Shown here: positions 1-35,938 of the stretch, piece by piece
How the letters are laid out: the number at the start of each line of letters is the position of its first letter
How positions within the stretch are numbered: the first letter of the stretch is position 1
Virus record (IMG/VR): IMGVR_UViG_3300033514_000249
Span: 1 to 43,311 of that record
Reading direction: 5' to 3' (one strand)
Source: a virus
Lineage: Duplodnaviria; Caudoviricetes
DNA: 43,311 bases
Notes under the pieces: model-generated
What the model saw: the letters and a program-made list of their open reading frames with translations, nothing else
The model's database searches: none
Told to the model about the DNA's origin: nothing
Program-made: the position numbers and the translations under genes

Positions 1-48
1 ACAACACTTGCAATGTTGAGACCGGGGGTTTGATGCCCCCTACCTACA
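1..48 (+). tRNA. tRNA-Ala(TGC), 5'-truncated by the window edge
   Basis: Anticodon arm caaca-CT TGC AA-tgttg, T arm ggggg-tttgatg-ccccc, 3' acceptor strand tacctac+a. Confidence 0.8.
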
Positions 49-55
49 CTTTTAT

Positions 56-142
56 ACCGTCGTGTCAGAGTTAGGTCAATCGGAACAGGCTCATATCCTG
101 TGGCTTTAATTAGCCTCACTGGTTCAAATCCAGTCGACGGTA
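56..142 (+). tRNA. tRNA with CAT anticodon (Met/Ile2) and a long variable arm
   Basis: Acceptor accgtcg/cgacggt, anticodon arm acagg-CT CAT AT-cctgt, variable hairpin ggct-ttaatt-agcc, T arm actgg-ttcaaat-ccagt, A73, no CCA. Confidence 0.8.
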
Positions 143-149
143 CTAAAAT

Positions 150-229
150 ACCCCTATATCCAAAGTTGTTTCCTAAACAATTATATGTAATTGGAGATGA
201 AAATGCAAGTTCGAATCTTGTTGGGGGTA
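150..229 (+). ncRNA. Non-canonical tRNA-like RNA with CCT (Arg) anticodon loop and rearranged arm order
   Basis: Acceptor accccta/tgggggt, U8A9, T arm gcaag-ttcgaat-cttgt. Hairpin gttgt-TT CCT AA-acaat directly follows the acceptor strand, and D-loop-like GTAATTGGAG lies 3' of it. Confidence 0.65.
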
Positions 230-243
230 CAAATGAAAAATAT

Positions 244-323
244 GCCCGCTTAACCCGTTCAGGTTTCTACCCTGTTATCGGTAATTGGAGTTGTAAATGT
301 GAATTCGAATCTCATAGTGGGTT
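244..323 (+). ncRNA. Non-canonical tRNA-like RNA with TCT (Arg) anticodon loop and rearranged arm order
   Basis: Acceptor gcccgct/agtgggt, U8A9, T arm gtgaa-ttcgaat-ctcat (one mismatch). Hairpin cagg-TT TCT AC-cctg precedes GTAATTGGAG. Same length and layout as 150-229. Confidence 0.65.
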
Positions 324-329
324 CAAAAT

Positions 330-411
330 GGCTTTGTGTTGTAATTGGTAGCCAACCTAGTTTAAGAAGCTAGTGCCGCAAGGTGTGGGGGTTCGAATCC
401 CCCCAAAGTCA
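330..411 (+). tRNA. tRNA-Leu(AAG)
   Basis: Acceptor ggctttg/caaagtc, anticodon arm ctagt-TT AAG AA-gctag, long variable arm gcc-gcaa-ggt, T loop ttcgaat, A73. Confidence 0.85.
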
Positions 412-491
412 CATTAAATTAAAGATGTAAGGAGACCGTTTTAGAATTTTTTATAGAACTTAGGTAGGGAATCATAAAAAAATTCAATAAT

Positions 492-566
492 GTAGGTGTA
501 GCACAACGGTTAGTGCGCCTGGTTACCAACCAGGGGACGAGGTTTCGACTACCTCTACCTACTCCA
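492..566 (+). tRNA. tRNA-Gly(ACC)
   Basis: Acceptor gtaggtg/tacctac, anticodon arm cctgg-TT ACC AA-ccagg, U73, encoded CCA. Near-paralog of tRNA-Gly(TCC). Confidence 0.9.
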
Positions 567-568
567 AA

Positions 569-678
569 TTAAAGAATACTTAGATGGTATTCGGAACAAA
601 GGAAATACCCTTATTTCTTGCGATAGATGGTCTTAAAACGACCTAACGATACAAAAGGGCATTGATAGTATTCTTTAA
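569..678 (+). ncRNA. Structured inter-tRNA RNA of unknown type
   Basis: 12-bp closing stem ttaaagaatact/agtattctttaa enclosing ccctt/aaggg and ggtc-ttaaaac-gacc stems. Confidence 0.45.
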
Positions 679-684
679 TGAAAT

Positions 685-759
685 GCAGGTGTAGCACAAC
701 GGCTAGTGCGTAAGTTTTCCAAACTTAGGATGAGGTTTCGACTACCTCTACCTGCTCCA
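685..759 (+). tRNA. tRNA-Gly(TCC)
   Basis: Acceptor gcaggtg/tacctgc, anticodon arm taagt-TT TCC AA-actta, U73, CCA. Confidence 0.92.
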
Positions 760-762
760 TAT

Positions 763-836
763 GGTGAATGTAGCTCAATCGGAAGAGCGCAAGATTGTGG
801 TTCTTGAGGCAGCGGGATCGTAACCCGTCTTTCACC
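763..836 (+). tRNA. tRNA-His(GTG)
   Basis: G-1/C73, anticodon arm caaga-TT GTG GT-tcttg, D stem gctc/gagc. Confidence 0.9.
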
Positions 837-844
837 CAAAATAT

Positions 845-917
845 TCCCTTATAGTTTAGTTGATAAAACATAATCTTGGTATGATTAAGAGCATGAGTTT
901 GAGTCTCATTAAGGGAT
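845..917 (+). tRNA. tRNA-Thr(GGT), slightly degenerate
   Basis: Acceptor tccctta/taaggga, anticodon arm taatc-TT GGT AT-gatta. D loop has GA instead of GG; T loop tttgagt. Confidence 0.75.
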
Positions 918-927
918 CAAAATAAAT

Positions 928-1000
928 GCCACTGTAGCTCAATTGGAAGAGTTTCTGAATACGGATCAGATAGTTGCGGGTTCGAATCCTGTCAGTGGTT
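928..1000 (+). tRNA. tRNA-Arg(ACG)
   Basis: Acceptor gccactg/cagtggt, anticodon arm tctga-AT ACG GA-tcaga, T loop ttcgaat. Confidence 0.9.
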
Positions 1001-1006
1001 CAAAAT

Positions 1007-1081
1007 GGAGGAGTAGCCGAATGGTTAAGAGGCAACAGGTTTAGGTCCTGAAATTTGTGGGTTCGACTCCCACCTTCTTCA
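1007..1081 (+). tRNA. tRNA-Leu(TAG) with a short variable loop
   Basis: Acceptor ggaggag/cttcttc, Leu-type large D loop, cagg-TT TAG GT-cctg, only ~5-nt variable region, A73. Confidence 0.8.
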
Positions 1082-1172
1082 CGTTGAAAACATTATTTTT
1101 ATTGATATTATTAAATATTTGGAAGTTTTGTATTATTGTATTTTTATATATAATAAAAAATAATAGTATAAT

Positions 1173-1859
1173 ATGGCAAGAAAAGAAAAAGAATATCATT
1201 TTATTTATAAAACAACAAATATAATAAATAATAAATATTATATAGGAATGCATTCTACTAATAATTTAGAAGATGGTTATGTTGGTAGTGGTAAAAGATT
1301 ATGGTATTCTATTAATAAATATGGGAAAGATAATTTTAAAGTAGAAATAATAGAATTTTTAGATAATATGAAATTATTAAAAGAAAAAGAAAGGGAATAT
1401 GTAAATGAAAATTTACTTAAAGATAAAAAATGTATGAATATTAAACTTGGTGGTGAAGGTGGTTTTACAAGTAATGAAGCTAAAAAAGGTAGAATTGCAA
1501 CTGATAAAATATTATATGAAAAATATGGTGAAAATTTTCATACTATTGTAACTAAAAAATATCATGATTCATTAACAAAAGAAGATAAAGAAATTTTTTG
1601 TAATAAAGTTAAAGATGGTCAATTAAAAGTTGGTTTCAATTATAATACATTTGAGGGAAAGAAACATTCAGATGAATCTATTGAAAAAATGAAACTAACA
1701 CATAAATTAAATAATCATCAACAAGGAGAAAAAAATTCTAATTATGGAAAATGTTGGATTTATAATAATGAATTAAAACAGAATAAAAAAATTAAAAAAG
1801 AAGAATTAGAAAATTATTTAATCCAAGGTTGGTCAAGTGGTAGAAAAATGAAATTTTAG
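1173..1859 (+). CDS. GIY-YIG (Seg-like) homing endonuclease with NUMOD3 motif
   Basis: FIYKTTNIINNKYYIGMH...YVGSG GIY-YIG core; FEGKKHSDESIEKMK NUMOD3; free-standing within the tRNA array. Confidence 0.88.
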   Translation: MARKEKEYHFIYKTTNIINNKYYIGMHSTNNLEDGYVGSGKRLWYSINKYGKDNFKVEIIEFLDNMKLLKEKEREYVNENLLKDKKCMNIKLGGEGGFTSNEAKKGRIATDKILYEKYGENFHTIVTKKYHDSLTKEDKEIFCNKVKDGQLKVGFNYNTFEGKKHSDESIEKMKLTHKLNNHQQGEKNSNYGKCWIYNNELKQNKKIKKEELENYLIQGWSSGRKMKF

Positions 1860-1898
1860 ACACTATAAACTTATTTTAATTTTTTATATATAAGAAAT

Positions 1899-2039
1899 AT
1901 GAAAACAAAACCTTTTATAAATCCAGTTATTGAAAAATTAATGGATGGTACAGAAGAAGAAAAGAAAATACTTGATAAAGCTATGGATGGTGAACCATTC
2001 TATGTTGGTGGAAGAAAGTATAAGATTGTTAATATGTAA
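1899..2039 (+). CDS. Small hypothetical protein (46 aa, MKTKPFINPV...), not in the supplied ORF track
   Basis: ATG-TAA ORF directly downstream of a TTTTATATATA motif. Confidence 0.55.
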   Translation: MKTKPFINPVIEKLMDGTEEEKKILDKAMDGEPFYVGGRKYKIVNM

Positions 2040-2049
2040 AAAAAATATT

Positions 2050-2315
2050 GGTTCCATAGCTCAGTTGGATAGAGCAACAGTTTTCTGAAATAGCGGGCTT
2101 TTAAGAGGAAACTTTTAAAATGTAAGTAGTCAAATTCGGTGAAACCTTAACGTAAAGACGAAGGCAATACCGAGCCAAGCCTTGAAAAAGGAAGGTGTAA
2201 CGACTTGACGGCTACCACCTAAATAGAAATATATGGTGAAGGTAAAGTCTGAGGAGTGGGGAAACTCACACAAACTTGAAACTGTTGGTCATGTGTTCGA
2301 ATCACATTGGAATCA
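2050..2315 (+). tRNA. tRNA-Arg(TCT) interrupted by a group I intron (exons 2050-2086 and 2279-2315)
   Basis: Acceptor ggttcca/tggaatc, D loop agttggata (A20). Splicing restores acagt-TT TCT AA-actgt. Confidence 0.85.
2087..2278 (+). ncRNA. ORF-less group I intron (IC3-like, 192 nt)
   Basis: 5' exon ends in U and intron ends in G. Core elements aaattcggtgaaacc (P), ggcaataccgagccaagc (Q), cgacttgacggc (R), aaggtaaagtct (S); GNRA-capped hairpins. Confidence 0.88.
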
Positions 2316-2409
2316 CAAATAATCTGGTAGAATACTGCGTGTGAGAAAGTCTTTTATTGTGGCGTAAGTCTTAGACCACGAACAGATATTAAAAATTAAT
2401 ATTTTTTAG

Positions 2410-3348
2410 ATGGAAAAATGTGATATATGTGGAAAAGAAGTAAAAAACATTCTTGGAATGTCACTTCATTTAAGAATGCATAAGATTAATTTAAAGGATT
2501 ATTATATTCAGTATAAAGGATTAGAGATTCCAAAGTGTCGTTGGTGTGAAGATCATGTTGAAATTCGTAAAGGAATAATATTTAATAAAACTTGTGGGAA
2601 AGAAGAATGTATATCTATGCAAAGTAGGTCATTAAAACACAAACCAGAAACCATTAAATTATTATCAGAACTTCAGAAAAAATGGTTAAGGGAACATATT
2701 GATGAACATTCTTGGAAAAAACTTAATAGAAAATCACCACCTTGTGAACATTTAAAAGAAAAATTAAGAGAAAGTGGTTTAACATTTTATGAAGAACATA
2801 TGCCAATAGTAATTAATAATTATGCAATTGATATAGCATTTCCATATAAAAAAATAGGATTAGAAGTAAATGGTAATCAACATTATAAAAGAAAAATGTT
2901 AACAAAATTTGATGATTATCATGAAGAGAAACAATTGGCACCATATTATCAAGAAAGAAAGGAAAAGATAGAAAAAGAAGGATGGATTTTAATTGATATA
3001 CATTATTCACTTGTTTGGAAACCAAAATTTGTTGATAATTTAATAAAACAATTAAAAGAACAATTAAAAACCCGTAAGGATTTTAATTTAGATCTTGATT
3101 TTTCATTTGAAAAAGAAAAAGAAATTAAACATTGTAAGAAGTGTGGTAAAGAATTAGGAATTGATAATAGAAAAAAAATGTGTCCTGATTGTGCAGCTGA
3201 AGAAAGACGTGTAACAGAAAGACCACCATATAAGGAATTAATGGCGGAGATTGATAAATATGGTTATACTGAAACTGGTAGAAGACATGATGGTGTTTCT
3301 GATAATACAATTAGAAATTGGGTAAAAATGTATAGAAAGAATATGTAA
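2410..3348 (+). CDS. Putative homing endonuclease: Zn fingers, Vsr/DUF559-like nuclease and C-terminal HTH
   Basis: CxxC..H..H N-terminus, IDIAFPYKKIGLEVNGNQHY nuclease motif, CKKC..CPDC, GVSDNTIRNW HTH. Confidence 0.7.
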   Translation: MEKCDICGKEVKNILGMSLHLRMHKINLKDYYIQYKGLEIPKCRWCEDHVEIRKGIIFNKTCGKEECISMQSRSLKHKPETIKLLSELQKKWLREHIDEHSWKKLNRKSPPCEHLKEKLRESGLTFYEEHMPIVINNYAIDIAFPYKKIGLEVNGNQHYKRKMLTKFDDYHEEKQLAPYYQERKEKIEKEGWILIDIHYSLVWKPKFVDNLIKQLKEQLKTRKDFNLDLDFSFEKEKEIKHCKKCGKELGIDNRKKMCPDCAAEERRVTERPPYKELMAEIDKYGYTETGRRHDGVSDNTIRNWVKMYRKNM

Positions 3349-3363
3349 GTAAGTGATAATCAC

Positions 3364-3436
3364 TGATCTATGGTGTAATTGGCAACACGTCGGGTTTTGG
3401 TCCCGAAGACTTTAGGTTCGAGCCCTAATAGATCAA
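3364..3436 (+). tRNA. tRNA-Gln(TTG)
   Basis: Acceptor tgatcta/tagatca (U1-A72), anticodon arm tcggg-TT TTG GT-cccga. Confidence 0.9.
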
Positions 3437-3514
3437 CAGTAGTTTAACACGCCTCTCGAAGAAGCGCATTTGTTAGGCAGCCCACCCCTCAGAAATGATA
3501 CACAGGTGGGATTT

Positions 3515-3601
3515 CGGGATGTGGTGTAGTTGGTAGCATACGTGGTTTGGGACCATGTGGGAACGTAAAAGTCATCGCAGGTTCGAGTCCTGCCATCCCG
3601 A
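3515..3601 (+). tRNA. tRNA-Pro(TGG) with a ~19-nt variable region
   Basis: Acceptor cgggatg/catcccg, anticodon arm cgtgg-TT TGG GA-ccatg, variable region tgggaacgtaaaagtcatc, T arm gcagg-ttcgagt-cctgc. Confidence 0.85.
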
Positions 3602-3690
3602 CATTTTCAAAATATACTTTAAACTATTATTTTTATTTAATATATAAGTGTATAGCTTGAAAGAGTTGAATAAAAATAATTAAATTAAAA

Positions 3691-3891
3691 ATGAGTCAAT
3701 TAACAGGAGTGTGTAAATTTTTCAACACCCAGAAAGGGTTTGGATTTATCAAAGAAAGTGGAACAGAGAATGAATATTTTGTGCATATAACAGGATGTGT
3801 AGATGAAATAAGAGAAAATGATCAAGTTGCATTTGAATTAAAAGAAGGTAAAAAAGGACTTATATCAACAAATGTAAGATTAGTTAATTAA
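3691..3891 (+). CDS. cspA: Cold-shock domain protein
   Basis: KFFNTQKGFGFI (RNP1) and YFVHIT (RNP2); 66 aa. Confidence 0.92.
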   Translation: MSQLTGVCKFFNTQKGFGFIKESGTENEYFVHITGCVDEIRENDQVAFELKEGKKGLISTNVRLVN

Positions 3892-3902
3892 AAACCAATA
3901 TG

Positions 3903-4271
3903 TTAAGGTAGATTAAAAGCAGGATTATAAACAAATTTTTTAACAGAATCAATATAACTTATCCAACCAATATCAATATCTTTATTAAGGTCAGATTTAA
4001 TACTTTTAAGTATATTAAGCATATTAAGTACTTGGGGTGCTTCTGCTTTGTCTATTACTGGTTTAAGTGTATTATTTTTAGATTTCATAACTAAATCAAC
4101 TTTAGTCATAAGGTCTTTAATTTCTTGTGGTTTATTTACATAATAATTTTCTTCATCAAGATTAATATTTTTAAGAAATTGTAATTTATTTTTAACAATA
4201 TCATTATGAGATGGGAATAGTTTAAATCCTTCATTGGATTCAAATTCTTCAAATGATGTTACATGTTTCAT
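3903..4271 (-). CDS. Hypothetical protein with CTS-like leader
   Basis: Starts MKHVTSFEEFESNEG; TTAATATATA upstream at 4292-4301. Confidence 0.7.
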   Translation of the reverse strand: MKHVTSFEEFESNEGFKLFPSHNDIVKNKLQFLKNINLDEENYYVNKPQEIKDLMTKVDLVMKSKNNTLKPVIDKAEAPQVLNMLNILKSIKSDLNKDIDIGWISYIDSVKKFVYNPAFNLP

Positions 4272-4318
4272 AATAATATATATTTTTCTTGTATATATTA
4301 AAAATAATTATATAATAA

Positions 4319-4350
4319 GTTGTTTTATAATAAAATTATATATATCTTTG
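4319..4350 (+). promoter_or_regulatory. Bacteroidota-type -33/-7 promoter
   Basis: GTTG-N20-TATCTTTG upstream of the ORF at 4375. Confidence 0.6.
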
Positions 4351-4374
4351 TGTATAAATTAAATACATATACAT

Positions 4375-4794
4375 ATGATAAAATTAGATTTTTCAGAATT
4401 ACAAGATAATGGTTTCAGGATTAATCAGTTAAGATTAGCACATACTTCAAAATATAAGACCAAGAATTTTTTTAGAAATAAAAAAGTTTTCACTGATGCT
4501 GGTGATATAATGGGAGAAAGGAATTTTGCTGTTGAATACTTAATTGAAAACACTGAGATATATTACACATTTCATTTGATTTTTAAGTATATTGCCATTT
4601 TAGCAATAGTAGTATTATTTGGTATTTTTTTTATTAATAAAAACTTCAATGCGGAAATGGTTACATTTGGAATATCTTTGATGGCTTATTTTATGGCAAG
4701 AAAGAAGAAAGAAGATTTTGTAATGTCTAATTTAGGTATTGGACTGGTTGAGAGTATGTATAACTTTGATATAAAAAACAAATTTAATTTATAA
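4375..4794 (+). CDS. Hypothetical membrane protein (2 TM)
   Basis: Hydrophobic segments YIAILAIVVLFGIFFI and MVTFGISLMAYFMA. Confidence 0.65.
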   Translation: MIKLDFSELQDNGFRINQLRLAHTSKYKTKNFFRNKKVFTDAGDIMGERNFAVEYLIENTEIYYTFHLIFKYIAILAIVVLFGIFFINKNFNAEMVTFGISLMAYFMARKKKEDFVMSNLGIGLVESMYNFDIKNKFNL

Positions 4795-4829
4795 AAAAAT
4801 CCCCATAATGTAAATTATGGGGATTTTTT
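4793..4829. terminator. Bidirectional intrinsic terminator
   Basis: aaaaaaatccccataat-gtaa-attatggggatttttt between convergent genes. Confidence 0.85.
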
Positions 4830-4844
4830 ATTTTATATAGGGAA

Positions 4845-5240
4845 TTAACCATTTTTACCACCACCTGTATGAGCAGAAAGTCCAACTGAACCAACTTCAT
4901 ATTTATTTTCTTTAGGATTCTTAAATAACTTTAAGTTACCACCTTTTTTATCATTTAATACTGCTAAAGTTTTTTGTAGAAGTTCAGCTTTATCTTCTAA
5001 TGATAAAGATAATACTTCTTCTTTTCTTGCTGGAAAATTAGTCAAAGACCTAGAAAATAAGCTAACTAAAAGATCTCCTGCTTTTTTATCATCTTTAGGA
5101 TTTTTAGCAAAGAAATTTTCTATACTTTTCTTACGTGGGTCAAGTACATTGGTTATAAATTCACCAACACCTTCATTAACTTCTTCAGTTTCTTTAACTG
5201 AGAATTGTTCAAATGTCATCACATGTTTTAAATTTTCCAT
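4845..5240 (-). CDS. Hypothetical protein with CTS-like leader; tandem paralog of 5269-5637
   Basis: Shares MENLKHVMTFEQ..NEG and C-terminal VGL.AHTGGGK.G with its neighbour. Confidence 0.75.
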   Translation of the reverse strand: MENLKHVMTFEQFSVKETEEVNEGVGEFITNVLDPRKKSIENFFAKNPKDDKKAGDLLVSLFSRSLTNFPARKEEVLSLSLEDKAELLQKTLAVLNDKKGGNLKLFKNPKENKYEVGSVGLSAHTGGGKNG

Positions 5241-5268
5241 ATTAATATTATTTTTATTTTATAATTAA

Positions 5269-5637
5269 TTATCCTTTTTTACCACCACCTGTATGTGCTG
5301 CAAGACCTACACCACCAACTGTATATTCACCTTTAGTATTTTTAAATAATTTTAAAACACCAATTTTTGAATCACCTAGTTTTTCTGATGCCTGTGTTAA
5401 AATACCAACTTTAGTTTCTAATGGTAATTCTAATATTTCTGTTTTTAATGGTGGTATTTTAGCAAATGTTGATGCAAATGCACTTGATAAAAGTTTATTA
5501 GCTTTGTTGTTATCTGTTGGATTTTTAAGGAAATTATCAATATCAGTTTTTACACTGGTAAATAATCCTTCATTAACTGTATCATTTTCATTAACTGAAT
5601 ATTGTTCAAATGTCATAACATGTTTTAAATTTTCCAT
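5269..5637 (-). CDS. Hypothetical protein with CTS-like leader; tandem paralog of 4845-5240
   Basis: Same leader and C-terminus as 4845-5240; TTAATATATA at 5682-5691. Confidence 0.75.
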   Translation of the reverse strand: MENLKHVMTFEQYSVNENDTVNEGLFTSVKTDIDNFLKNPTDNNKANKLLSSAFASTFAKIPPLKTEILELPLETKVGILTQASEKLGDSKIGVLKLFKNTKGEYTVGGVGLAAHTGGGKKG

Positions 5638-5716
5638 CTTATTTAAATAAATTTTTAATTAAAACTAAGTTTAATTAAAAGTATATATTAAATAAAAAAA
5701 CTCATTTTTTGAAATT

Positions 5717-6064
5717 ATGAAAGAAATAAAAATTTATATTGCATCACCCTATACAAAAGGTGATACTGCGATGAATGTTAGATTTCAAATGGATATTGCA
5801 GACCAATTAATAGAATTAGGTTTTTATCCTTTTACACCACTATATTTTCATTTTCAACATATGTTTAAACCAAGACATTATACAGACTGGATGAAAATGG
5901 ACTTTGTTTGGTTAGCTCAATGTGATTGTGTGATTAGATTCTATCCTGTACAAAATGGTGAACTATTAGGTAGTCATGGTGCAGATTTAGAAGAACAGGA
6001 AGCAAAGAGATTGGGAATACCAGTATTTTATTCAATTGAAGAAGTAGTGAATTATTACAAATAA
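5717..6064 (+). CDS. DUF4406/DUF1937-like protein (nucleoside 2-deoxyribosyltransferase fold)
   Basis: KIYIASPYT...WMKMD..WLAQCD...SHGADLEEQEAKRLGIPV. Confidence 0.75.
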   Translation: MKEIKIYIASPYTKGDTAMNVRFQMDIADQLIELGFYPFTPLYFHFQHMFKPRHYTDWMKMDFVWLAQCDCVIRFYPVQNGELLGSHGADLEEQEAKRLGIPVFYSIEEVVNYYK

Positions 6065-20025: not shown

Positions 20026-21279
20026 ATGTTAAAAGCAATTAAAATAAGATTATATCCAGATAAAGACCAAGTAATTTACATCAATAAATTACTTGGTTCT
20101 TGTAGATTTGCTTATAATCAATGCCTTTCATATAAAATAGAAGAATATATAAAAACTAAAAAATCAATTAGTTTTGGGGAATTAGGTAAATATTTATTAC
20201 AGATAAAAACTGATAATTCATTTTTAAAAGAAGTTCATTCAAAAGTTCTTCAACAAACTTTAATAAATCTCCAAGGAGCATATACCAATTTTTTTAAAAA
20301 TAAAAAAGGATTTCCAAAATTTAAATCAAGAAAAGATAATAATCAATCTTGTAGATTTCCAGTGGATGCAATAATGGGAATAGAAGGAAACAGAATTAAT
20401 ATCATTAAAGTTTTAAAAGATATTCATTTTAAATGTTCAGTAAAGGATGAAGTTTATTTAAATAAATATCAGAATTTAATAAAATCCGGAACTTTAACTA
20501 AAACAAAATCAAATAAATATTATTTTTCTATATTGATTGATAGAAATGATACTAAAATTTTACCAACATCAACTAATATAATAGGAATAGATTTGGGAAT
20601 AAAAGATTTCATAATTACTTCAGAAGGAGTTAGTTATGAAAACATTAAAGTGAAAAGAAATAATGAAAAAAAGTTAATTAAATTAAATAGACAACTAAGT
20701 AAAAAAACAAATGGATCAAAAAATAAAGAAAAACAAAGAATAAAACTTGCAAAATTTCATGAAAAATTAAACAATCAAAAAGATTATTATTTACATTCAA
20801 TAGTGAATCAATTACTTAATGAAAACCAAGTGGTAGTAATTGAGGATTTAAATGTAAGTGGAATGATGAAAAACCATAAATTAGCTAAATCAATTCAAGA
20901 ATTATCAATAGGAAGATTTAATCAAATTTTAGAATATAAAGCTGATTGGTATGGTAAAGACATCATTGAAATAGATAGATGGTTTCCTTCAAGTAAATTA
21001 TGTTCTGTATGTGGATATAAAAATGATAAATTAACTTTATCTGACAGAGAATGGGTTTGTCCAAAGTGTCGTACAAAACATAACAGGGATTTAAATGCTG
21101 CAATTAATATAGAAAAAGAAGGAAAAAGAATTTTATTAATAAGTAAAAATAAAATAGGGTTGAGTTCACCCGAATATACGCTTGTGGAGAGTAGCTCTAT
21201 GGACGACCGTCAAGAAATTGACCTAAGAAGTACCTACTCAATGAAGCAAGAAAAGAATATCATTAATGATATTTATTAA
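20026..21279 (+). CDS. tnpB: TnpB RNA-guided endonuclease (IS200/IS605 OrfB)
   Basis: KAIKIRLYP..GSCRFAYN; RuvC GIDLG, IEDL, RDLNAAIN; Zn ribbon CSVC..CPKC. Confidence 0.93.
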   Translation: MLKAIKIRLYPDKDQVIYINKLLGSCRFAYNQCLSYKIEEYIKTKKSISFGELGKYLLQIKTDNSFLKEVHSKVLQQTLINLQGAYTNFFKNKKGFPKFKSRKDNNQSCRFPVDAIMGIEGNRINIIKVLKDIHFKCSVKDEVYLNKYQNLIKSGTLTKTKSNKYYFSILIDRNDTKILPTSTNIIGIDLGIKDFIITSEGVSYENIKVKRNNEKKLIKLNRQLSKKTNGSKNKEKQRIKLAKFHEKLNNQKDYYLHSIVNQLLNENQVVVIEDLNVSGMMKNHKLAKSIQELSIGRFNQILEYKADWYGKDIIEIDRWFPSSKLCSVCGYKNDKLTLSDREWVCPKCRTKHNRDLNAAINIEKEGKRILLISKNKIGLSSPEYTLVESSSMDDRQEIDLRSTYSMKQEKNIINDIY

Positions 21280-29575: not shown

Positions 29576-30997
29576 ATGGACGATAGGGAAAAAAGACAAA
29601 GAATCAATGAACTAAGAACTCTTATTGATAATAAAAAGAAAGAAAAAGATTTTGCTAAAGCAATGCAACTTGGTCTTAAGTTAACACTTAATGGAACTTA
29701 TGGTGCGTTTGCTAATAAATATTTTGTCTGTTCAAATGCAGACATTGCCAATGCCATCACTGCACATGGTAGAGATATCAACCAATTTATGATGGAAAAT
29801 ATTGAAGAATATTTCTATAATGAATGGCACCTTGATAAAAAAGCTCATGATAATTTAGGTATAGAATATTTTGGTAAATACAATGGTAAATATGCAGCTT
29901 ATACTTTGGATTTCAGAAAATTAGGTTGGGATCATGATTCATTAGAAAGTTTAATGAAACATAAAAATATCAGTATTCATCAGTTAAAAGAAAATATATT
30001 TGAACATGATGATATTGAAGTTCTTTATCAATATGATATATGGGATTTTTCAAATGTTAAAGCACTTGATGAAAATCCAATATGGGGTGAACTTGAAGGA
30101 AGGAAAAAATATGAAGGTAAGAATCAAGTAGTAGTCTATGGTGATACTGATTCATTATATGTTACTATGTTACCACTTATGAATTCTGTTGGATTTGATA
30201 AACCACTTGATGATTTATGGGGAAAGAGATTCATTCTTCATGTTGATGAAGTTTGTATTAAACCTAAATTCAATGAACTATTATATAAATATGCTGAACA
30301 ATTTGGTGTAGTTAGTTTACATGACTTTGAACTTGAAACAATCAGTAAATCTGCATTATTCCTAAAGAAAAAACACTACTTAAATAATATAGTATATGAA
30401 GATGGTGTTCACTATGAATCACTTTCATATTTCTACCCAAAAGGTATTGAAATTATACGTTCTTCCACTCCACCATTTGTTAGAAAAAATATTTATAGAG
30501 TTATTAATTATCTATTTGCAAACCCTGGTAATATTAATATTCATGAAGTTCTTAAAATTGTAAAAGAATTAAGAAGAGAATTTGAAATGGCTGATATTGA
30601 AGATATTAGTATGACAACTTCTTGTTCTAATTATGCATCTAAATGTTTAGATGATACAGTTACATTGAATTGTGTAAAGGGTGCTCACTTTGGGGTTAAA
30701 GCTGCAGCTTTTCATAATCATCTTTTAAATAAGAATTCAGATTTTAAGACTAAATATGATATGATAAAATCAGGAAGGATAAAATATTATTATTGTAAAC
30801 ATCCACAAGGTGATGTGTTTGCTTATCTTAGAAGTTTTCATCCTACTGAAATAGTTGAAAAAGAAAGAGTAATAATTGATATTGATACCCAATTTGATAA
30901 ATCATTTTTGGTAATTGTAAATAAATTTATTGAAGTTCTTGGACTACAACCTATTAATAAAAGATTATCTGTATTAACATCATTATTTAATTTTTAA
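29576..30997 (+). CDS. Family B DNA polymerase, C-terminal subunit (split enzyme)
   Basis: Motif B KLTLNGTYG, motif C YGDTDS, KKHY, KGIEIIRSSTP; no exonuclease domain or motif A. Confidence 0.88.
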   Translation: MDDREKRQRINELRTLIDNKKKEKDFAKAMQLGLKLTLNGTYGAFANKYFVCSNADIANAITAHGRDINQFMMENIEEYFYNEWHLDKKAHDNLGIEYFGKYNGKYAAYTLDFRKLGWDHDSLESLMKHKNISIHQLKENIFEHDDIEVLYQYDIWDFSNVKALDENPIWGELEGRKKYEGKNQVVVYGDTDSLYVTMLPLMNSVGFDKPLDDLWGKRFILHVDEVCIKPKFNELLYKYAEQFGVVSLHDFELETISKSALFLKKKHYLNNIVYEDGVHYESLSYFYPKGIEIIRSSTPPFVRKNIYRVINYLFANPGNINIHEVLKIVKELRREFEMADIEDISMTTSCSNYASKCLDDTVTLNCVKGAHFGVKAAAFHNHLLNKNSDFKTKYDMIKSGRIKYYYCKHPQGDVFAYLRSFHPTEIVEKERVIIDIDTQFDKSFLVIVNKFIEVLGLQPINKRLSVLTSLFNF

Positions 30998-31453: not shown

Positions 31454-32810
31454 ATGAACTACCAACTACACTAAAGATGTAGTGGTTTCAAGGTTCACAA
31501 CCTCTTCTACTGAAGACGACTCCCCTTGTTTTTGTTTTATATCCGACTCAATCCCTGAACCAGATAATATTTTTAATCCTTGATTTAATATATTTAAACT
31601 TGCATTTAAATCTCTATTATGATTTGTATTACAAGAAGGACAAGTCCATTCTCTGTCTTTTAAAGTCAAGTCATCTTTAATGTAATTACAGATGTTACAC
31701 ATTTTACTAGATGGAAAAAATCTATCAATCATTATAACTGTTTTATCATTCCAGTTTGATTTATATTCTAACATAGAATATAACTCACCCAATCCAACAT
31801 CAGCAAAAGACAAAGCCAATTTATGGTTTTTCATTAGATTTTTCACAGCAAGGTCTTCAATACAAATAATATCGTGGTTTTTGACTATTTCTGTAGTAAC
31901 TTTGTGTAAGTAATCCCTTCTAACATTGGTTATTCTTTCATGTATTATAGCAAGTTTTTGTTTGTAAATTAATCTATTTTTACTTCCCTTTGATTTTTTG
32001 GAAAATTGTCTTTGATTATATTTTAATTTTTTAATGTTTTTTCTTAAAGTTTTAATATTTTCATATACCTTACCATCTGAAAGTATTGCTAAATCTTTTA
32101 ATCCAGTATCAATTCCAACATTAGAATTGGTTTTTTCATATTGTTGGTGTTGAACTTCACAAGTCATAGAAATATAATACTTATTAGTAACAGTTTTTGA
32201 AATAGTACCAAACATTATTTTACCTTCAATTTCTCGGTGTAATTTAATTTTAATTCCTTGTTTAAACTTTGGTATCCATAATTGTTCTTCTTCAATTGTT
32301 ATTGACTGAGGAATTGTAAATGATTGTTTAGTATATTTATTTTTAAACTTCGGAAATTTTGATTGTCTTCTAAAAAATCTATTGTATGAAATGTCTAAAT
32401 GTTTTAATGTAGATTGTAATGATTGACTATTTATTTCTTTTAACCAAATATAATTCTCATCCTTTTTTAATTGTGTTAAGTTATTTGCATTGTCATGATA
32501 ATTTAAAGTATTTTTATTATTTAAATATTCATCCTTTCTTTCATTTAAATAATGATTAAATATGAATCTACAAGCACCAAAATGTTTTGATAATAACACT
32601 TGTTGATCCTTTGTTGGATCAATTCTAAACTTATATGACTTAAATATTGTTTTCATTATAAGTATATATTAAACTTTAAAAGTCATTTTTTATCAAAAAT
32701 AATTTTTTTAGTAAAAAATATTAAAACTTTTAATTATTTTCAAAATATAAAGTGTAATTGAAATTCATCCACACAAACTAAAGATTTGTGGGTTTTCTTT
32801 CAACTAAAAG
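31454..32810 (-). mobile_element. IS200/IS605-family (tnpB-only, IS1341-like) element, 1357 bp
   Basis: Related subterminal hairpins (ccacaaatctttagtttgtgtgg and ccactacatctttagtgtagttgg), right end ...GTTCAT, TTTAT just outside the left end, no target duplication. Confidence 0.85.
31466..32656 (-). CDS. tnpB: TnpB RNA-guided endonuclease
   Basis: KSYKFRIDP..FGACRFIFN; RuvC GIDTG, IEDL, RDLNASLN; Zn ribbon CNIC..CPSC. Confidence 0.93.
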   Translation of the reverse strand: MKTIFKSYKFRIDPTKDQQVLLSKHFGACRFIFNHYLNERKDEYLNNKNTLNYHDNANNLTQLKKDENYIWLKEINSQSLQSTLKHLDISYNRFFRRQSKFPKFKNKYTKQSFTIPQSITIEEEQLWIPKFKQGIKIKLHREIEGKIMFGTISKTVTNKYYISMTCEVQHQQYEKTNSNVGIDTGLKDLAILSDGKVYENIKTLRKNIKKLKYNQRQFSKKSKGSKNRLIYKQKLAIIHERITNVRRDYLHKVTTEIVKNHDIICIEDLAVKNLMKNHKLALSFADVGLGELYSMLEYKSNWNDKTVIMIDRFFPSSKMCNICNYIKDDLTLKDREWTCPSCNTNHNRDLNASLNILNQGLKILSGSGIESDIKQKQGESSSVEEVVNLETTTSLV

Positions 32811-34144: not shown

Positions 34145-35938
34145 TTATTTTAATTCTTTTAATTCTGATTCCATTTCAGATATTCTAATTCCTAGTTCAC
34201 CAACCTTTTTCTTTTCACCTTCTACAACAGCAGCAGGTGCTCTATCAACAAAATTCTTATTAGATAATTTACCTTCAGTACTCTTTAAAGAAGCTTTAGC
34301 TAAATCAATTTCTTTCATTAATTGAGTAATTCTTTGTTGAGTTGGTCCATCAATAGTTTTTTCACTTGTTGTAGGAACACTAACTACAAATTCTTCTAAA
34401 TCAGATAACCTATTTAAAGTTTCTTCCTTACCAATCATTTCCATAATTCCAAATAATGAACCACCATTACCAAGTCCAGTTAATACCAATCTTACAAATG
34501 GTGTAATATCAGAATATTTAAGTTTATTATCTTCAACATATTTTTCAAATGTTGCATGAATCTTATTTTCTTTCCAAGGATTTATATCAGCTAATTTTTC
34601 ACAAAATCCAAGAATAATATCAGGTGTCTTAACACTCCATTTCTTCATTGTCTTTTCATCAAAATCAGTTGGTCTTTCAAATAAATAATTAACAGCATCA
34701 TATAATTCCTTAATGAAATTTACTTTACCTTTATTTTCATCAATAACCTTATAAATAAAATCATCACTTTTCTTAATACCCCTTTTTGCTAAAACTTCTT
34801 TAAAAGATTCCATTAACTTTTCAGTTGGGGTATTCTTTAAATGTTGTCCATTAAACCATGCAGCTTTTACCGGGTTAAATTTACCACCTGCTTTATTTAT
34901 CCTTTTAAGGTCAAAATCTTTAATCAATTCTTCCATAGTGTAAATCTCCTTCTCTGTCCCAGGATTCCATCCAATGAACGCTAAAAGGTTAATAACGGCC
35001 TCTGGTGTGTAACCAGCTTCCCTATATCCCATTGCAGTTTTTGAAGTATCTTTTGGGTCTGTCCAATTTAAAGGAAATACCGGAAAACCATATTTATCAC
35101 CATCTCTTTTACTTAATTTACCACTTGGTCCAAGAATTAATGGAAGGTGAGCAAATTGTGGTGCAGTCCAATCAAAACATTCATATAAATATACATGTAA
35201 TGGTGCTGATGGAAGCCATTCTTCACCTCTGATAACATGTGTAATTTTCATTAAATGGTCATCAACAATATTTGCTAAGTGATAAGTAGGAAGTTCATCT
35301 TTCTTCTTCCAAATAACTTTATCATCTAATGTATTAGTATTAACAGATACTTTTCCTCTGATAATATCATCAACTTCAATTGTAACTGGTTTATCAGGAT
35401 ATTTAATTCTAATAACCCAATCTTTATTTTCATCTAATAATCTATCAACTTCTGCATCATCCAATGTTAATGAATTCTTCATATCATTTCTTGTTTCAAA
35501 AGAATATGAAAAATTAGGAAGGTTTTCTCTTACTGCTTCTAATTCTTCAGAAGTATCAAATGCATAGTATGCTTTACCATTATCAATTAATTCTTGTACA
35601 TATTTTGTGTAAATATCTTTTCTTTCAGATTGTTTATAAGGACCATAAGGACCACCTTTAGATGGACTTTCATCAAATTCAATTCCAATCCAATCAAATG
35701 CTTCTTGAATATATTGTTCTGCACCCGGAACAAATCTTGTTGAATCAGTATCTTCTATTCTTAAAATTAATTTACCATCATGCTTTTTAGCAAATAGGTA
35801 ATTGTAGAGTGCAGTTCTTACACCACCAATATGTAACGCCCCTGTAGGTGAAGGCGCAAAACGCAGACGGGGTGGGGTTTTTAAACTTTCATTAAGTTTA
35901 CTTGATGCAAAATCATTGTAATTTTTAAGAATTTTCAT
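34145..35938 (-). CDS. gltX: Glutamate--tRNA ligase with CTS-like leader and ValRS-type C-terminal coiled coil
   Basis: RFAPSPTG.LHIGG, LRIEDTD, THVIRGEEW, KLSKRDG; tail KLSNKNFVDRAPAAVVEGEKKK. Confidence 0.93.
   Translation of the reverse strand: MKILKNYNDFASSKLNESLKTPPRLRFAPSPTGALHIGGVRTALYNYLFAKKHDGKLILRIEDTDSTRFVPGAEQYIQEAFDWIGIEFDESPSKGGPYGPYKQSERKDIYTKYVQELIDNGKAYYAFDTSEELEAVRENLPNFSYSFETRNDMKNSLTLDDAEVDRLLDENKDWVIRIKYPDKPVTIEVDDIIRGKVSVNTNTLDDKVIWKKKDELPTYHLANIVDDHLMKITHVIRGEEWLPSAPLHVYLYECFDWTAPQFAHLPLILGPSGKLSKRDGDKYGFPVFPLNWTDPKDTSKTAMGYREAGYTPEAVINLLAFIGWNPGTEKEIYTMEELIKDFDLKRINKAGGKFNPVKAAWFNGQHLKNTPTEKLMESFKEVLAKRGIKKSDDFIYKVIDENKGKVNFIKELYDAVNYLFERPTDFDEKTMKKWSVKTPDIILGFCEKLADINPWKENKIHATFEKYVEDNKLKYSDITPFVRLVLTGLGNGGSLFGIMEMIGKEETLNRLSDLEEFVVSVPTTSEKTIDGPTQQRITQLMKEIDLAKASLKSTEGKLSNKNFVDRAPAAVVEGEKKKVGELGIRISEMESELKELK

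Follow-up and report, generated by a model that had tools for sequence, protein, structure and literature searches.

The cloverleaf order of arms is, to our knowledge, treated as universal for mature tRNA, and the exceptions we know of either lose or resize arms or are spliced back. Among RNAs that resemble tRNA, YrlA has a closed acceptor and Ro60 as its partner, and the tRNA-like structure of TYMV has a pseudoknotted acceptor. Passages of one study class the plant-virus tRNA mimics as circular and non-circular tRNA matches (PMC11472068). In circularly permuted tRNA genes, as sections of PMC3978253 describe them, the 3′ half comes first and splicing restores the cloverleaf. Allo-tRNAs and selC* are described in parts of Mukai et al. 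(2017, PMC5389517) as having an 8/4 or 9/3 branch, normal arm order, and mostly Ser or Ala identity. Finally, passages of PMC10085705 state that no natural non-circular permutation had been known earlier and that the tRNA examples were only circular and processed to the standard form.

We analyzed a 43,311-base virus record, hereafter the window. Around the locus of interest, ARAGORN and Rfam delineate a plus-strand tRNA array at positions 1–1082 that carries Met, two unusual units, Leu, Gly, Gly, His, Thr, Arg(ACG), and Leu. The array runs on a single strand throughout, its 5′ end is lost at the window start, and the units lie between the Met and Leu tRNAs. A first-pass annotation of this DNA had placed two 80-nt tRNA-like units at 150–229 and 244–323, with the anticodon arm ahead of the D loop. 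Parsing confirmed both positions, and the arm order was borne out in both units and is conserved across the family described below. As that annotation anticipated, tRNA finders pass over the units: ARAGORN called 10 tRNAs in the window, and neither unit was among them. It had also counted a match to an Rfam family as a refutation; at E ≤ 5 over positions 1–6000, there were 18 Rfam matches, with 11 neighboring tRNAs matching RF00005 and none of the 18 on the units.

Several other features of the window deserve mention. ARAGORN calls Leu(AAG) at 330–412 and Gly(ACC) at 492–566. In both, the anticodon starts with A34, a feature that bacteria seldom show except in Arg tRNA. Two ORFs lie within the tRNA array, one at 1173–1859 that matches homing-endonuclease PHROGs and one at 2410–3348 with no Pfam or PHROG match. 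A family scan of 32 of the window's 65 ORFs recognized a class I Glu/Gln synthetase, a family B DNA polymerase fragment, an NAD synthase, and NusG, and found no ArgRS and no Ro60 family among the ORFs scanned. The phage-encoded synthetase (34145–35938, 597 aa) has an added C-terminal match to the ValRS tRNA-binding arm, while the 473-aa polymerase piece (29576–30997) is below whole-polymerase length and is possibly a split gene. Two IS605 OrfB/TnpB-like genes are found at 20026–21279 and 31466–32656.

Each unit consists of a 7-bp acceptor, U8-A9, a 5-bp stem with a 7-nt loop, the D-loop motif TAATTGGA (188–195 in unit 1 and 282–289 in unit 2), a 9-nt linker, and a T arm. Unit 1 (150–229, plus strand, 80 nt) reads as an arm-swapped tRNA-Arg(CCU) with discriminator A229 and without an encoded CCA. 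Its segment A (150–158) holds the acceptor 5′ strand (150–156, pairing with 222–228), U8, and A9. The 5′ strand of an extra helix, P2, spans 158–160 and pairs with 196–198, which correspond to columns 9–11 and 47–49 of the family alignment (97.4% of cells paired). Segment C (161–182) contains the D-stem 3′ strand equivalent (nucleotides 23–25 at 161–163), nucleotide 26, the anticodon arm (stem 165–169/177–181, loop 170–176, CCT at 172–174), and nucleotide 44. Segment B (185–195) supplies the D-stem 5′ strand equivalent (nucleotides 10–12 at 185–187), followed by U13, A14, A15, G18, G19, and A20 (195). The 3′ part (196–229) comprises the P2 3′ strand (196–198), a variable-region equivalent ending in U48 (204), the T arm (205–221), the acceptor 3′ strand (222–228), and the discriminator (229), all on the plus strand.

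Unit 2 (244–323, plus strand, 80 nt) repeats this layout as an arm-swapped tRNA-Arg(UCU) with discriminator U323, again without an encoded CCA. Here, segment A (244–252) holds the acceptor 5′ strand (244–250, pairing with 316–322), U8, and A9; segment C (255–276) holds the D-stem 3′ strand equivalent (255–257) and the anticodon arm (259–275, TCT at 266–268); and segment B (279–289) holds the D-stem 5′ strand equivalent (279–281) and the D loop (282–289), with A20 at 289. The remainder (290–323, all plus strand) begins with the P2 3′ strand (290–292, pairing with 252–254) and a linker to U48 (298) and ends with the T arm (299–315), the acceptor 3′ strand, and the discriminator. Neither copy is flawless, as unit 2 has an A-C mismatch at 53–61 and U-U at 27–43, and unit 1 has A-A at 25–10. 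They score 81.8 bits (unit 1) and 77 bits (unit 2) with model R1, which was built partly from these same two units.

To find relatives, we used a pattern that combined the D-loop and T-loop motifs at the short spacing of the window units and left out the anticodon. This returned 26 viral loci, several of them identical copies, and all 26 had the swapped layout and an Arg anticodon. We then ran nine more pattern scans with changes to position 20, to linker length, and to the 15/48 pair. A structural descriptor applied to the resulting 885 loci (2.86 Mb) recovered 440 distinct units, compared with zero in three base-shuffled copies. The family therefore has at least 440 distinct units in viral, metagenome, and genome contigs, mostly of phage origin. 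This number is a sample. For the short-linker pattern alone, IMG/VR is estimated to contain ~930 matching stretches; of 120 short-linker loci fetched, 100 had a unit. In three other scans, most loci were without a unit (91 of 120, 56 of 75, and 73 of 90). Among 203 descriptor matches, seven proved to be misparsed ordinary tRNAs and were removed, and one was without a clean D loop. RF00005 matched relatives of the window units weakly, reaching 29.7–44.8 bits on 16 relatives in 20 loci.

The first-pass annotation had suggested checking whether the anticodons are restricted to YCT, an idea that the family rejects. The 440 units carry TCT (133), TAT (110), GAT (71), ACG (57), TCG (29), CAT (18), CCT (17), GCG (3), CCG (1), and CCA (1), proportions that were shaped by the search patterns and are not natural abundances. 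All six Arg anticodons are thus represented along with the Ile anticodons GAT and TAT, CAT, and a single CCA, and no isotype beyond these appeared among the matches listed for patterns with position 20 free or non-A. Because all patterns demanded G12-U13-A14 and G18G19, units with D loops of another type might be missed. The one unit with neither an Arg nor an Ile anticodon (L788:264+) has CCA (Trp), G20, and G73. Other outliers include swapped Arg(UCU) genes of just 73–74 nt that encode their CCA and lie on large contigs of bacteria (L936, L937, and L938) and a short tRNA-like unit (L417:11991–12057, minus strand) with an Arg(UCU) loop and T arm, in which the D loop is not recognizable.

The segment order emerges from covariation in the 80-nt form, of which 90 representatives sharing <85% identity (mean 63%) were compared. 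The top 20 covarying column pairs all belong to one 23-pair structure, and the remaining three pairs of that structure are nearly invariant. Because the acceptor, anticodon, and T stems were descriptor requirements (98% of acceptor and T-stem cells are paired), two helices alone count as independent evidence. In these, column pairs 10–48 and 13–37, which lie outside the descriptor requirements, are paired in 90 of 90 representatives with all four Watson-Crick types. Overall, 96.4% of cells are paired vs. 62.4% when shuffled. The first of the two helices, columns 12–14 with 36–38, is the main one, and it had been overlooked in the first-pass annotation despite being present; it is the D stem, whose two strands have traded places along the sequence. 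At 13–37 (n = 65), the pairs are GC 48, AU 9, CG 6, GU 1, and UA 1, and 14–36 is mismatched in 21 of 65. The second helix is the one that the annotation did see, between the strand following the acceptor and the strand following the D loop. Of its proposed pairs, 9–49, 10–48, and 11–47 hold, with 10–48 covarying (n = 65: GC 41, AU 20, UA 2, CG 1, and GU 1), but a fourth, U8-G50, shows no covariation. We rejected U8-G50 as a P2 pair: it never varies, in part owing to the search patterns, and carries no information; A14 is more likely the partner of U8. A local D hairpin 3′ of the anticodon arm was likewise rejected, since it shows no covariation and columns 37–49 pair in only 10 of 90.

The strand adjacent to the D loop corresponds to nucleotides 10–12, and its partner, 23–25, lies upstream, directly 5′ of nucleotide 26 and the anticodon stem. 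It follows that the order is A (1–9), C (22–44), B (10–21), and D (45–76), a non-circular segment swap (A-C-B-D) that rotating the parent sequence cannot reach. Covariation also puts the D-stem strands on both sides of the anticodon arm, which is not the cloverleaf arm order, and for this reason, we do not class the swapped units as canonical tRNA. The anticodon arm itself is conventional across the family, with a 5-bp stem, 7-nt loop, U33, and a purine at 37. In the 440-unit set, the G15-C48 total (83) and pairing at 23–12 and 24–11 were fixed by the patterns or the descriptor and are not independent evidence.

P2 is an optional element. The 80-nt form has 3 bp of it, a long-linker form with mostly Ile anticodons has 2 bp, and the short forms, where seven nucleotides (8, 9, and 22–26) lead from acceptor to anticodon stem, lack it. 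In 138 of 440 units, the linker after G18G19 is just 5–7 nt (20, 21, and 45–48), which is insufficient for P2. Single-sequence folding did not favor the two core helices, giving −9.7 and −13.3 kcal/mol for the swapped structure against minimum free energies of −19.0 and −19.3; mean pair probabilities were 0.14 for P2 and 0.22 for the D stem, and the T stem was also low at 0.41. Some units carry additional elements, namely a class II-like variable-arm hairpin directly 5′ of nucleotide 48 (L522:10719–10809+, L443:7346–7434−, and L494:8216–8305+) or, in three swapped Arg units (L051:253+, L061:253+, and L106:260+), an 11–18-nt insert 3′ of the anticodon stem. The first four bases of these inserts complement the post-D-loop linker, possibly forming an extra long-range helix. 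Taken as a comparative prediction, the swapped secondary structure is supported to a degree that leaves us with very little doubt.

The 15–48 pair is part of the L-shaped core of tRNA. Nine units with G15 were found before any pattern asked for G15/C48, and eight of these nine have C48, compared with 0 of 184 units with A15. The U8/A14, R15/Y48, and G18G19 combinations are all retained at the sequence level, with U8, A14, and G18G19 being search-pattern elements rather than independent evidence. It is likely that the normal L shape is kept. The backbone links 9–10, 21–22, and 44–45 would be replaced by 9–22, 21–45, and a connection of 2 to 4 nt from 44 to 10. Because all three relinks fall at the core junction, the acceptor end, elbow, position 20, and anticodon would keep their places for synthetase, EF-Tu, and ribosome. 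The covarying secondary structure could also be drawn as a different three-dimensional fold in which P2, the D stem, and the anticodon stem stack in one long helix and the D loop is bulged out. However, 15–48 covaries; U8, A14, G18, G19, and the T loop are retained; and the short-linker forms do without P2 and have segment lengths equal to the canonical numbering. We consider the long-helix fold very improbable.

Restoring the canonical order makes the units legible to existing tools. With segments B and C swapped back, ARAGORN reported the right anticodon in 437 of 440 units vs. 7 of 440 in native order. This test is lenient, with 134 of 136 units still passing when segment B came from a different unit and random-cut controls (n = 58) averaging 8 of 136 with a maximum of 128 of 136, and so it demonstrates segment order, not pairing. 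That swapped-back segments give normal tRNAs, together with an RNA ligase gene near one carrier's unit, would suit a permuted gene that yields a canonical tRNA once its transcript has been cleaved and rejoined, like the circularly permuted genes of algae and an archaeon. Yet such processing needs three cuts and three joins, the extra sequence between nucleotides 44 and 10 is just 2–4 nt in 427 of 440 units, and selection on P2 pairing exists solely in the swapped connectivity. The known cases, as far as passages of PMC3978253 describe them, use BHB splicing and come from eukaryotes and archaea. Re-ligation strikes us as an even slimmer prospect than the long helix. Under the retained L shape, the swapped RNA would instead be excised from the transcript of the tRNA array and receive its CCA tail as its neighbors do, without re-splicing. 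One RNA run, with 5% of words present, was uninformative here, as contigs fell only on ordinary tRNAs of other organisms and none on 150–323.

The nucleotides read by synthetases follow the anticodon. Entries in Table 1 of Giege and Eriani (2023, PMC9976931) list A20, C35, U/G36, and A/G/U73 as the bacterial Arg identity set and include A73, C4-G69, and U20 among Ile determinants. Both window units carry the Arg set. Across the family, A20 is found in 240 of 240 Arg units vs. 6 of 199 Ile/CAU units, in patterns of which three left position 20 free, three excluded A, four required A, and none specified the anticodon. When position 20 was free and linkers were short, A20 was present in 63 of 63 Arg vs. 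1 of 36 Ile/CAU units. The discriminator of Arg units is A in 84, G in 87, U in 68, and C in 1 (A/G/U73 in 239 of 240), and Ile/CAU units have U20 in 184 of 199 and A73 in 199 of 199. Canonical tRNAs from the same loci, for which 723 of 1156 calls were parsable, have A20 in 60 of 63 Arg tRNAs and 51 of 660 others. The CAU units, with C4-G69 in 14 of 18, are nearer to Ile than to Met by the Table 1 entries in PMC9976931. The Ile set used for comparison also includes A35/U36, U12-A23, and C29-G41. The Escherichia coli Ile determinants are partly absent, as C29-G41 occurs in 1 of 31 and C4-G69 in 14 of 32, and the 23–12 pair, which the descriptor constrained, is nearly always C-G vs. the Ile determinant U12-A23. 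Both isotypes are present in all four layout subtypes, suggesting that anticodon and position 20 switched together repeatedly.

An encoded CCA is present at similar rates in swapped units (159 of 440) and canonical tRNAs (265 of 723). Because identity nucleotides track the anticodon and the CCA rate is that of canonical neighbors, selection appears to target synthetase recognition, and the host arginyl- (or isoleucyl-) tRNA synthetase would charge the swapped units. These signals bear on two further explanations. The strongest of them (A20/U20, discriminator, and CCA) concern the synthetase only, and irregular tRNAs that are charged without decoding exist, according to parts of PMC5389517. This leaves room for units that ArgRS or IleRS would charge for a role away from the ribosome, either donating the aminoacyl group to a transferase or sensing charging. 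No recurring partner gene was noticed among the neighbors inspected, which were tRNAs, HNH nuclease, RNA ligase, nucleotidyltransferase, and hypothetical genes, and both the variety at the wobble position and the filling of gaps in tRNA sets would be superfluous for such a role, which we rate as improbable. As for functionless remnants of decayed or duplicated tRNAs, the few mismatches in the window copies are what one might expect of them. The first-pass annotation had thought decay unlikely, a judgment strengthened by the 440 distinct units with compensatory changes, their absence from shuffled sequence, and identity nucleotides that follow the anticodon. Decay is refuted for the family, and we give it almost no probability overall, although single copies could still be inactive.

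If charged, the units may decode. Their 7-nt anticodon loops are identical to those of canonical phage Arg/Ile tRNAs, and all six Arg anticodons are in use, which fits decoding. Swapped and canonical Arg genes occur together in 38 locus groups, where the swapped Arg anticodon was also present in canonical form in 11 of 46 cases vs. 17.3 expected (p = 0.006 by a permutation that ignores relatedness among phages). None of the seven complete cultured phages with a swapped Arg gene has a canonical gene for that anticodon, and allowing introns revealed no further canonical Arg gene in cultured phages. Vibrio phage PG07 has 19 other tRNAs but no Arg tRNA except the swapped unit; TC6 and Atu_ph04 have no further tRNA at all; and Panino and Boevelstad gain UCU from it alongside a canonical ACG. 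By contrast, Ile units show no complementarity (9 of 16 vs. 9.1 expected), and the phage Jay2Jay likewise counts against it. The window phage also speaks against simple replacement. At 2050–2316 (plus strand), a group I intron (RF00028, 76.2 bits) interrupts a canonical tRNA. ARAGORN labels this tRNA Gln(CUG), but by a junction scan it is best read as Arg(UCU) with A20 and a junction at 2086/2279, duplicating the anticodon of unit 2. Codon use in 28 window ORFs (AGA 218, AGG 32, and CGN 20) marks this phage as AGA-rich, and the two units would supply AGA/AGG decoding.

Coexistence of this kind is frequent. Swapped Arg units have a canonical twin in 11 of 46 cases compared with 4 of 98 for canonical-canonical duplicates, which raises the alternative of a non-decoding, L-shaped decoy for Arg/Ile-specific tRNA nucleases or modifying toxins, or of a sink for ArgRS or IleRS. 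Loops that exactly copy canonical ones are what bait requires, some small phages carry the unit without any other tRNA (TC6), and tRNA-targeting defenses are widespread, as sections of PMC12409363 and PMC13462974 report. Still, a decoy should accompany the tRNA that it protects, whereas Arg sharing is below chance and the partner is absent in seven of seven complete phages. Moreover, a loop decoy has no need for A20, a discriminator, and CCA that track the anticodon. We find the decoy unlikely, and on these patterns of sequence the balance leans toward decoding. The observations fit a working isoacceptor that would sometimes replace and sometimes back up a canonical tRNA. Our best reading, and in our estimation a probable one, is that the swapped units are charged, decoding Arg/Ile tRNAs with a rewired core.

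Why the rewired form is kept is a separate matter. The first-pass annotation had raised the evasion of anticodon nucleases, which at the level of the loop finds no support in loops that are those of canonical phage Arg/Ile tRNAs; because the loops are the same, escape from loop-only nucleases would be left unexplained. A backup isoacceptor could instead be poorly recognized by host tRNA-destroying or -modifying factors that read the tRNA body. We hold defense evasion of this kind as a tentative explanation, somewhat more doubtful than not. Passages of PMC13462974 report that Cash nucleases cut the T loop broadly, and the T loop that they cut is unchanged in swapped units. The restriction to Arg and Ile admits one idea of its own. 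ArgRS and IleRS are class Ia enzymes that bind tRNA from the side of the D loop, at a distance from the re-routed strands, and this docking might permit the swap in these isotypes, though other class Ia isotypes were not found. As to origin, we can only speculate that a tandem duplication of nucleotides 10–44 was followed by two deletions.

The family is widely but unevenly distributed. Eight cultured phages carry a unit, with hosts in Pseudomonas (two), Vibrio, Maribacter, Agrobacterium, Stenotrophomonas, Salmonella, and Streptomyces; these carriers include Pseudomonas phage TC6/PA11, Vibrio phage PG07, Maribacter phage Panino, and Streptomyces phage Jay2Jay. In all eight records, the swapped unit is without tRNA annotation, and ARAGORN finds zero tRNAs in two phages that carry one. 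Phage tRNA inventories, therefore, systematically underestimate Arg and Ile genes. One unit is matched across most of its length by 298 Vibrio phage records, and an Ile unit is matched by 78 records, almost all of them from Streptomyces phages. Presence in cellular genomes is patchy, with a unit in 17 of 90 GTDB pattern loci. Among genomes related to one bacterial carrier (G001), 5 of 41 have a unit, all Arg(UCU); around the chromosomal copy in that carrier, 3 of 13 ORFs match PHROGs, all of unknown function.

The first-pass annotation knew of no described class with this connectivity, and neither did we find a description of arm-swapped tRNAs in the literature searched, a search in which most subscription journals were out of reach. 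We conclude that the class is real, conserved, and undescribed within that literature. Taking everything together, we lean, with modest confidence, toward regarding the swapped units as widespread working tRNAs with a non-circularly permuted backbone, the first natural tRNAs that would be L-shaped without a cloverleaf. They are nearly confined to Arg and Ile and occur in phages of Proteobacteria, Bacteroidota, and Actinomycetota and on some bacterial chromosomes, where they perhaps serve as isoacceptors poorly handled by host tRNA-targeting defenses. If this is true, then translation requires the L shape, not the cloverleaf, and the swapped units would be the second natural non-circular RNA permutation in the literature found, with the hammerhead ribozyme being the first. 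The class also offers a new tRNA scaffold and poses the question of why Arg and Ile alone are involved.

Set beside described systems, the swapped units are closest to canonical tRNA-Arg and tRNA-Ile (RF00005). They share the 7/5 acceptor branch, U8, A14, R15/Y48, G18G19, T loop, 5-bp anticodon stem with 7-nt loop, location in tRNA arrays, a similar rate of encoded CCA, and identity nucleotides (A20, C35, and U or G36 for Arg; A73 and U20 for Ile). The difference lies in segments 10–21 and 22–44, which stand in standard order in canonical tRNA; because they are exchanged in swapped units, the D arm is no hairpin, and many members add a 2–3-bp helix. Allo-tRNAs, selC*, and E-loop irregular tRNAs are likewise non-canonical tRNAs of bacteria and phages that came from metagenomes, and Ile UAU and Arg GCG anticodons are frequent in allo-tRNAs (parts of PMC5389517 and PMC7609411). 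Unlike allo-tRNAs, which have a long variable arm, swapped units have a 7/5 branch, an identity that follows the anticodon, and a variable-arm hairpin in few members only.

The YrlA Y RNAs (RF02553) and the TYMV and BMV tRNA-like structures also arrive at a tRNA-like shape by a different backbone path, but these sit inside larger RNAs, whereas swapped units are free-standing and tRNA-sized, with an open acceptor, a discriminator, and often CCA. The open acceptor end and the lack of an RF02553 match on the window units set them apart from YrlA. Separately, phage Jay2Jay has a Ro gene ~8 kb from its swapped unit. Circularly permuted tRNA genes, reported from algae and an archaeon (Soma 2014, PMC3978253, in part), share out-of-order parts that finders miss. 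The swapped genes, carried by phages and bacteria, instead keep acceptor strands at both ends as usual and exchange the inner segments; in all units, the acceptor 5′ strand comes first and the 3′ strand last, rather than the 3′ half leading. The nearest parallel in kind is the group of non-circularly permuted hammerhead ribozymes (Eckert et al. 2023, PMC10085705), whose reordering, in the passages that describe it, goes beyond any circular permutation while functional nucleotides are thought to stay in their three-dimensional places, as they would in swapped units judging by covariation and identity nucleotides. The hammerhead is a ribozyme, and the swapped units are tRNA-like with a predicted function.
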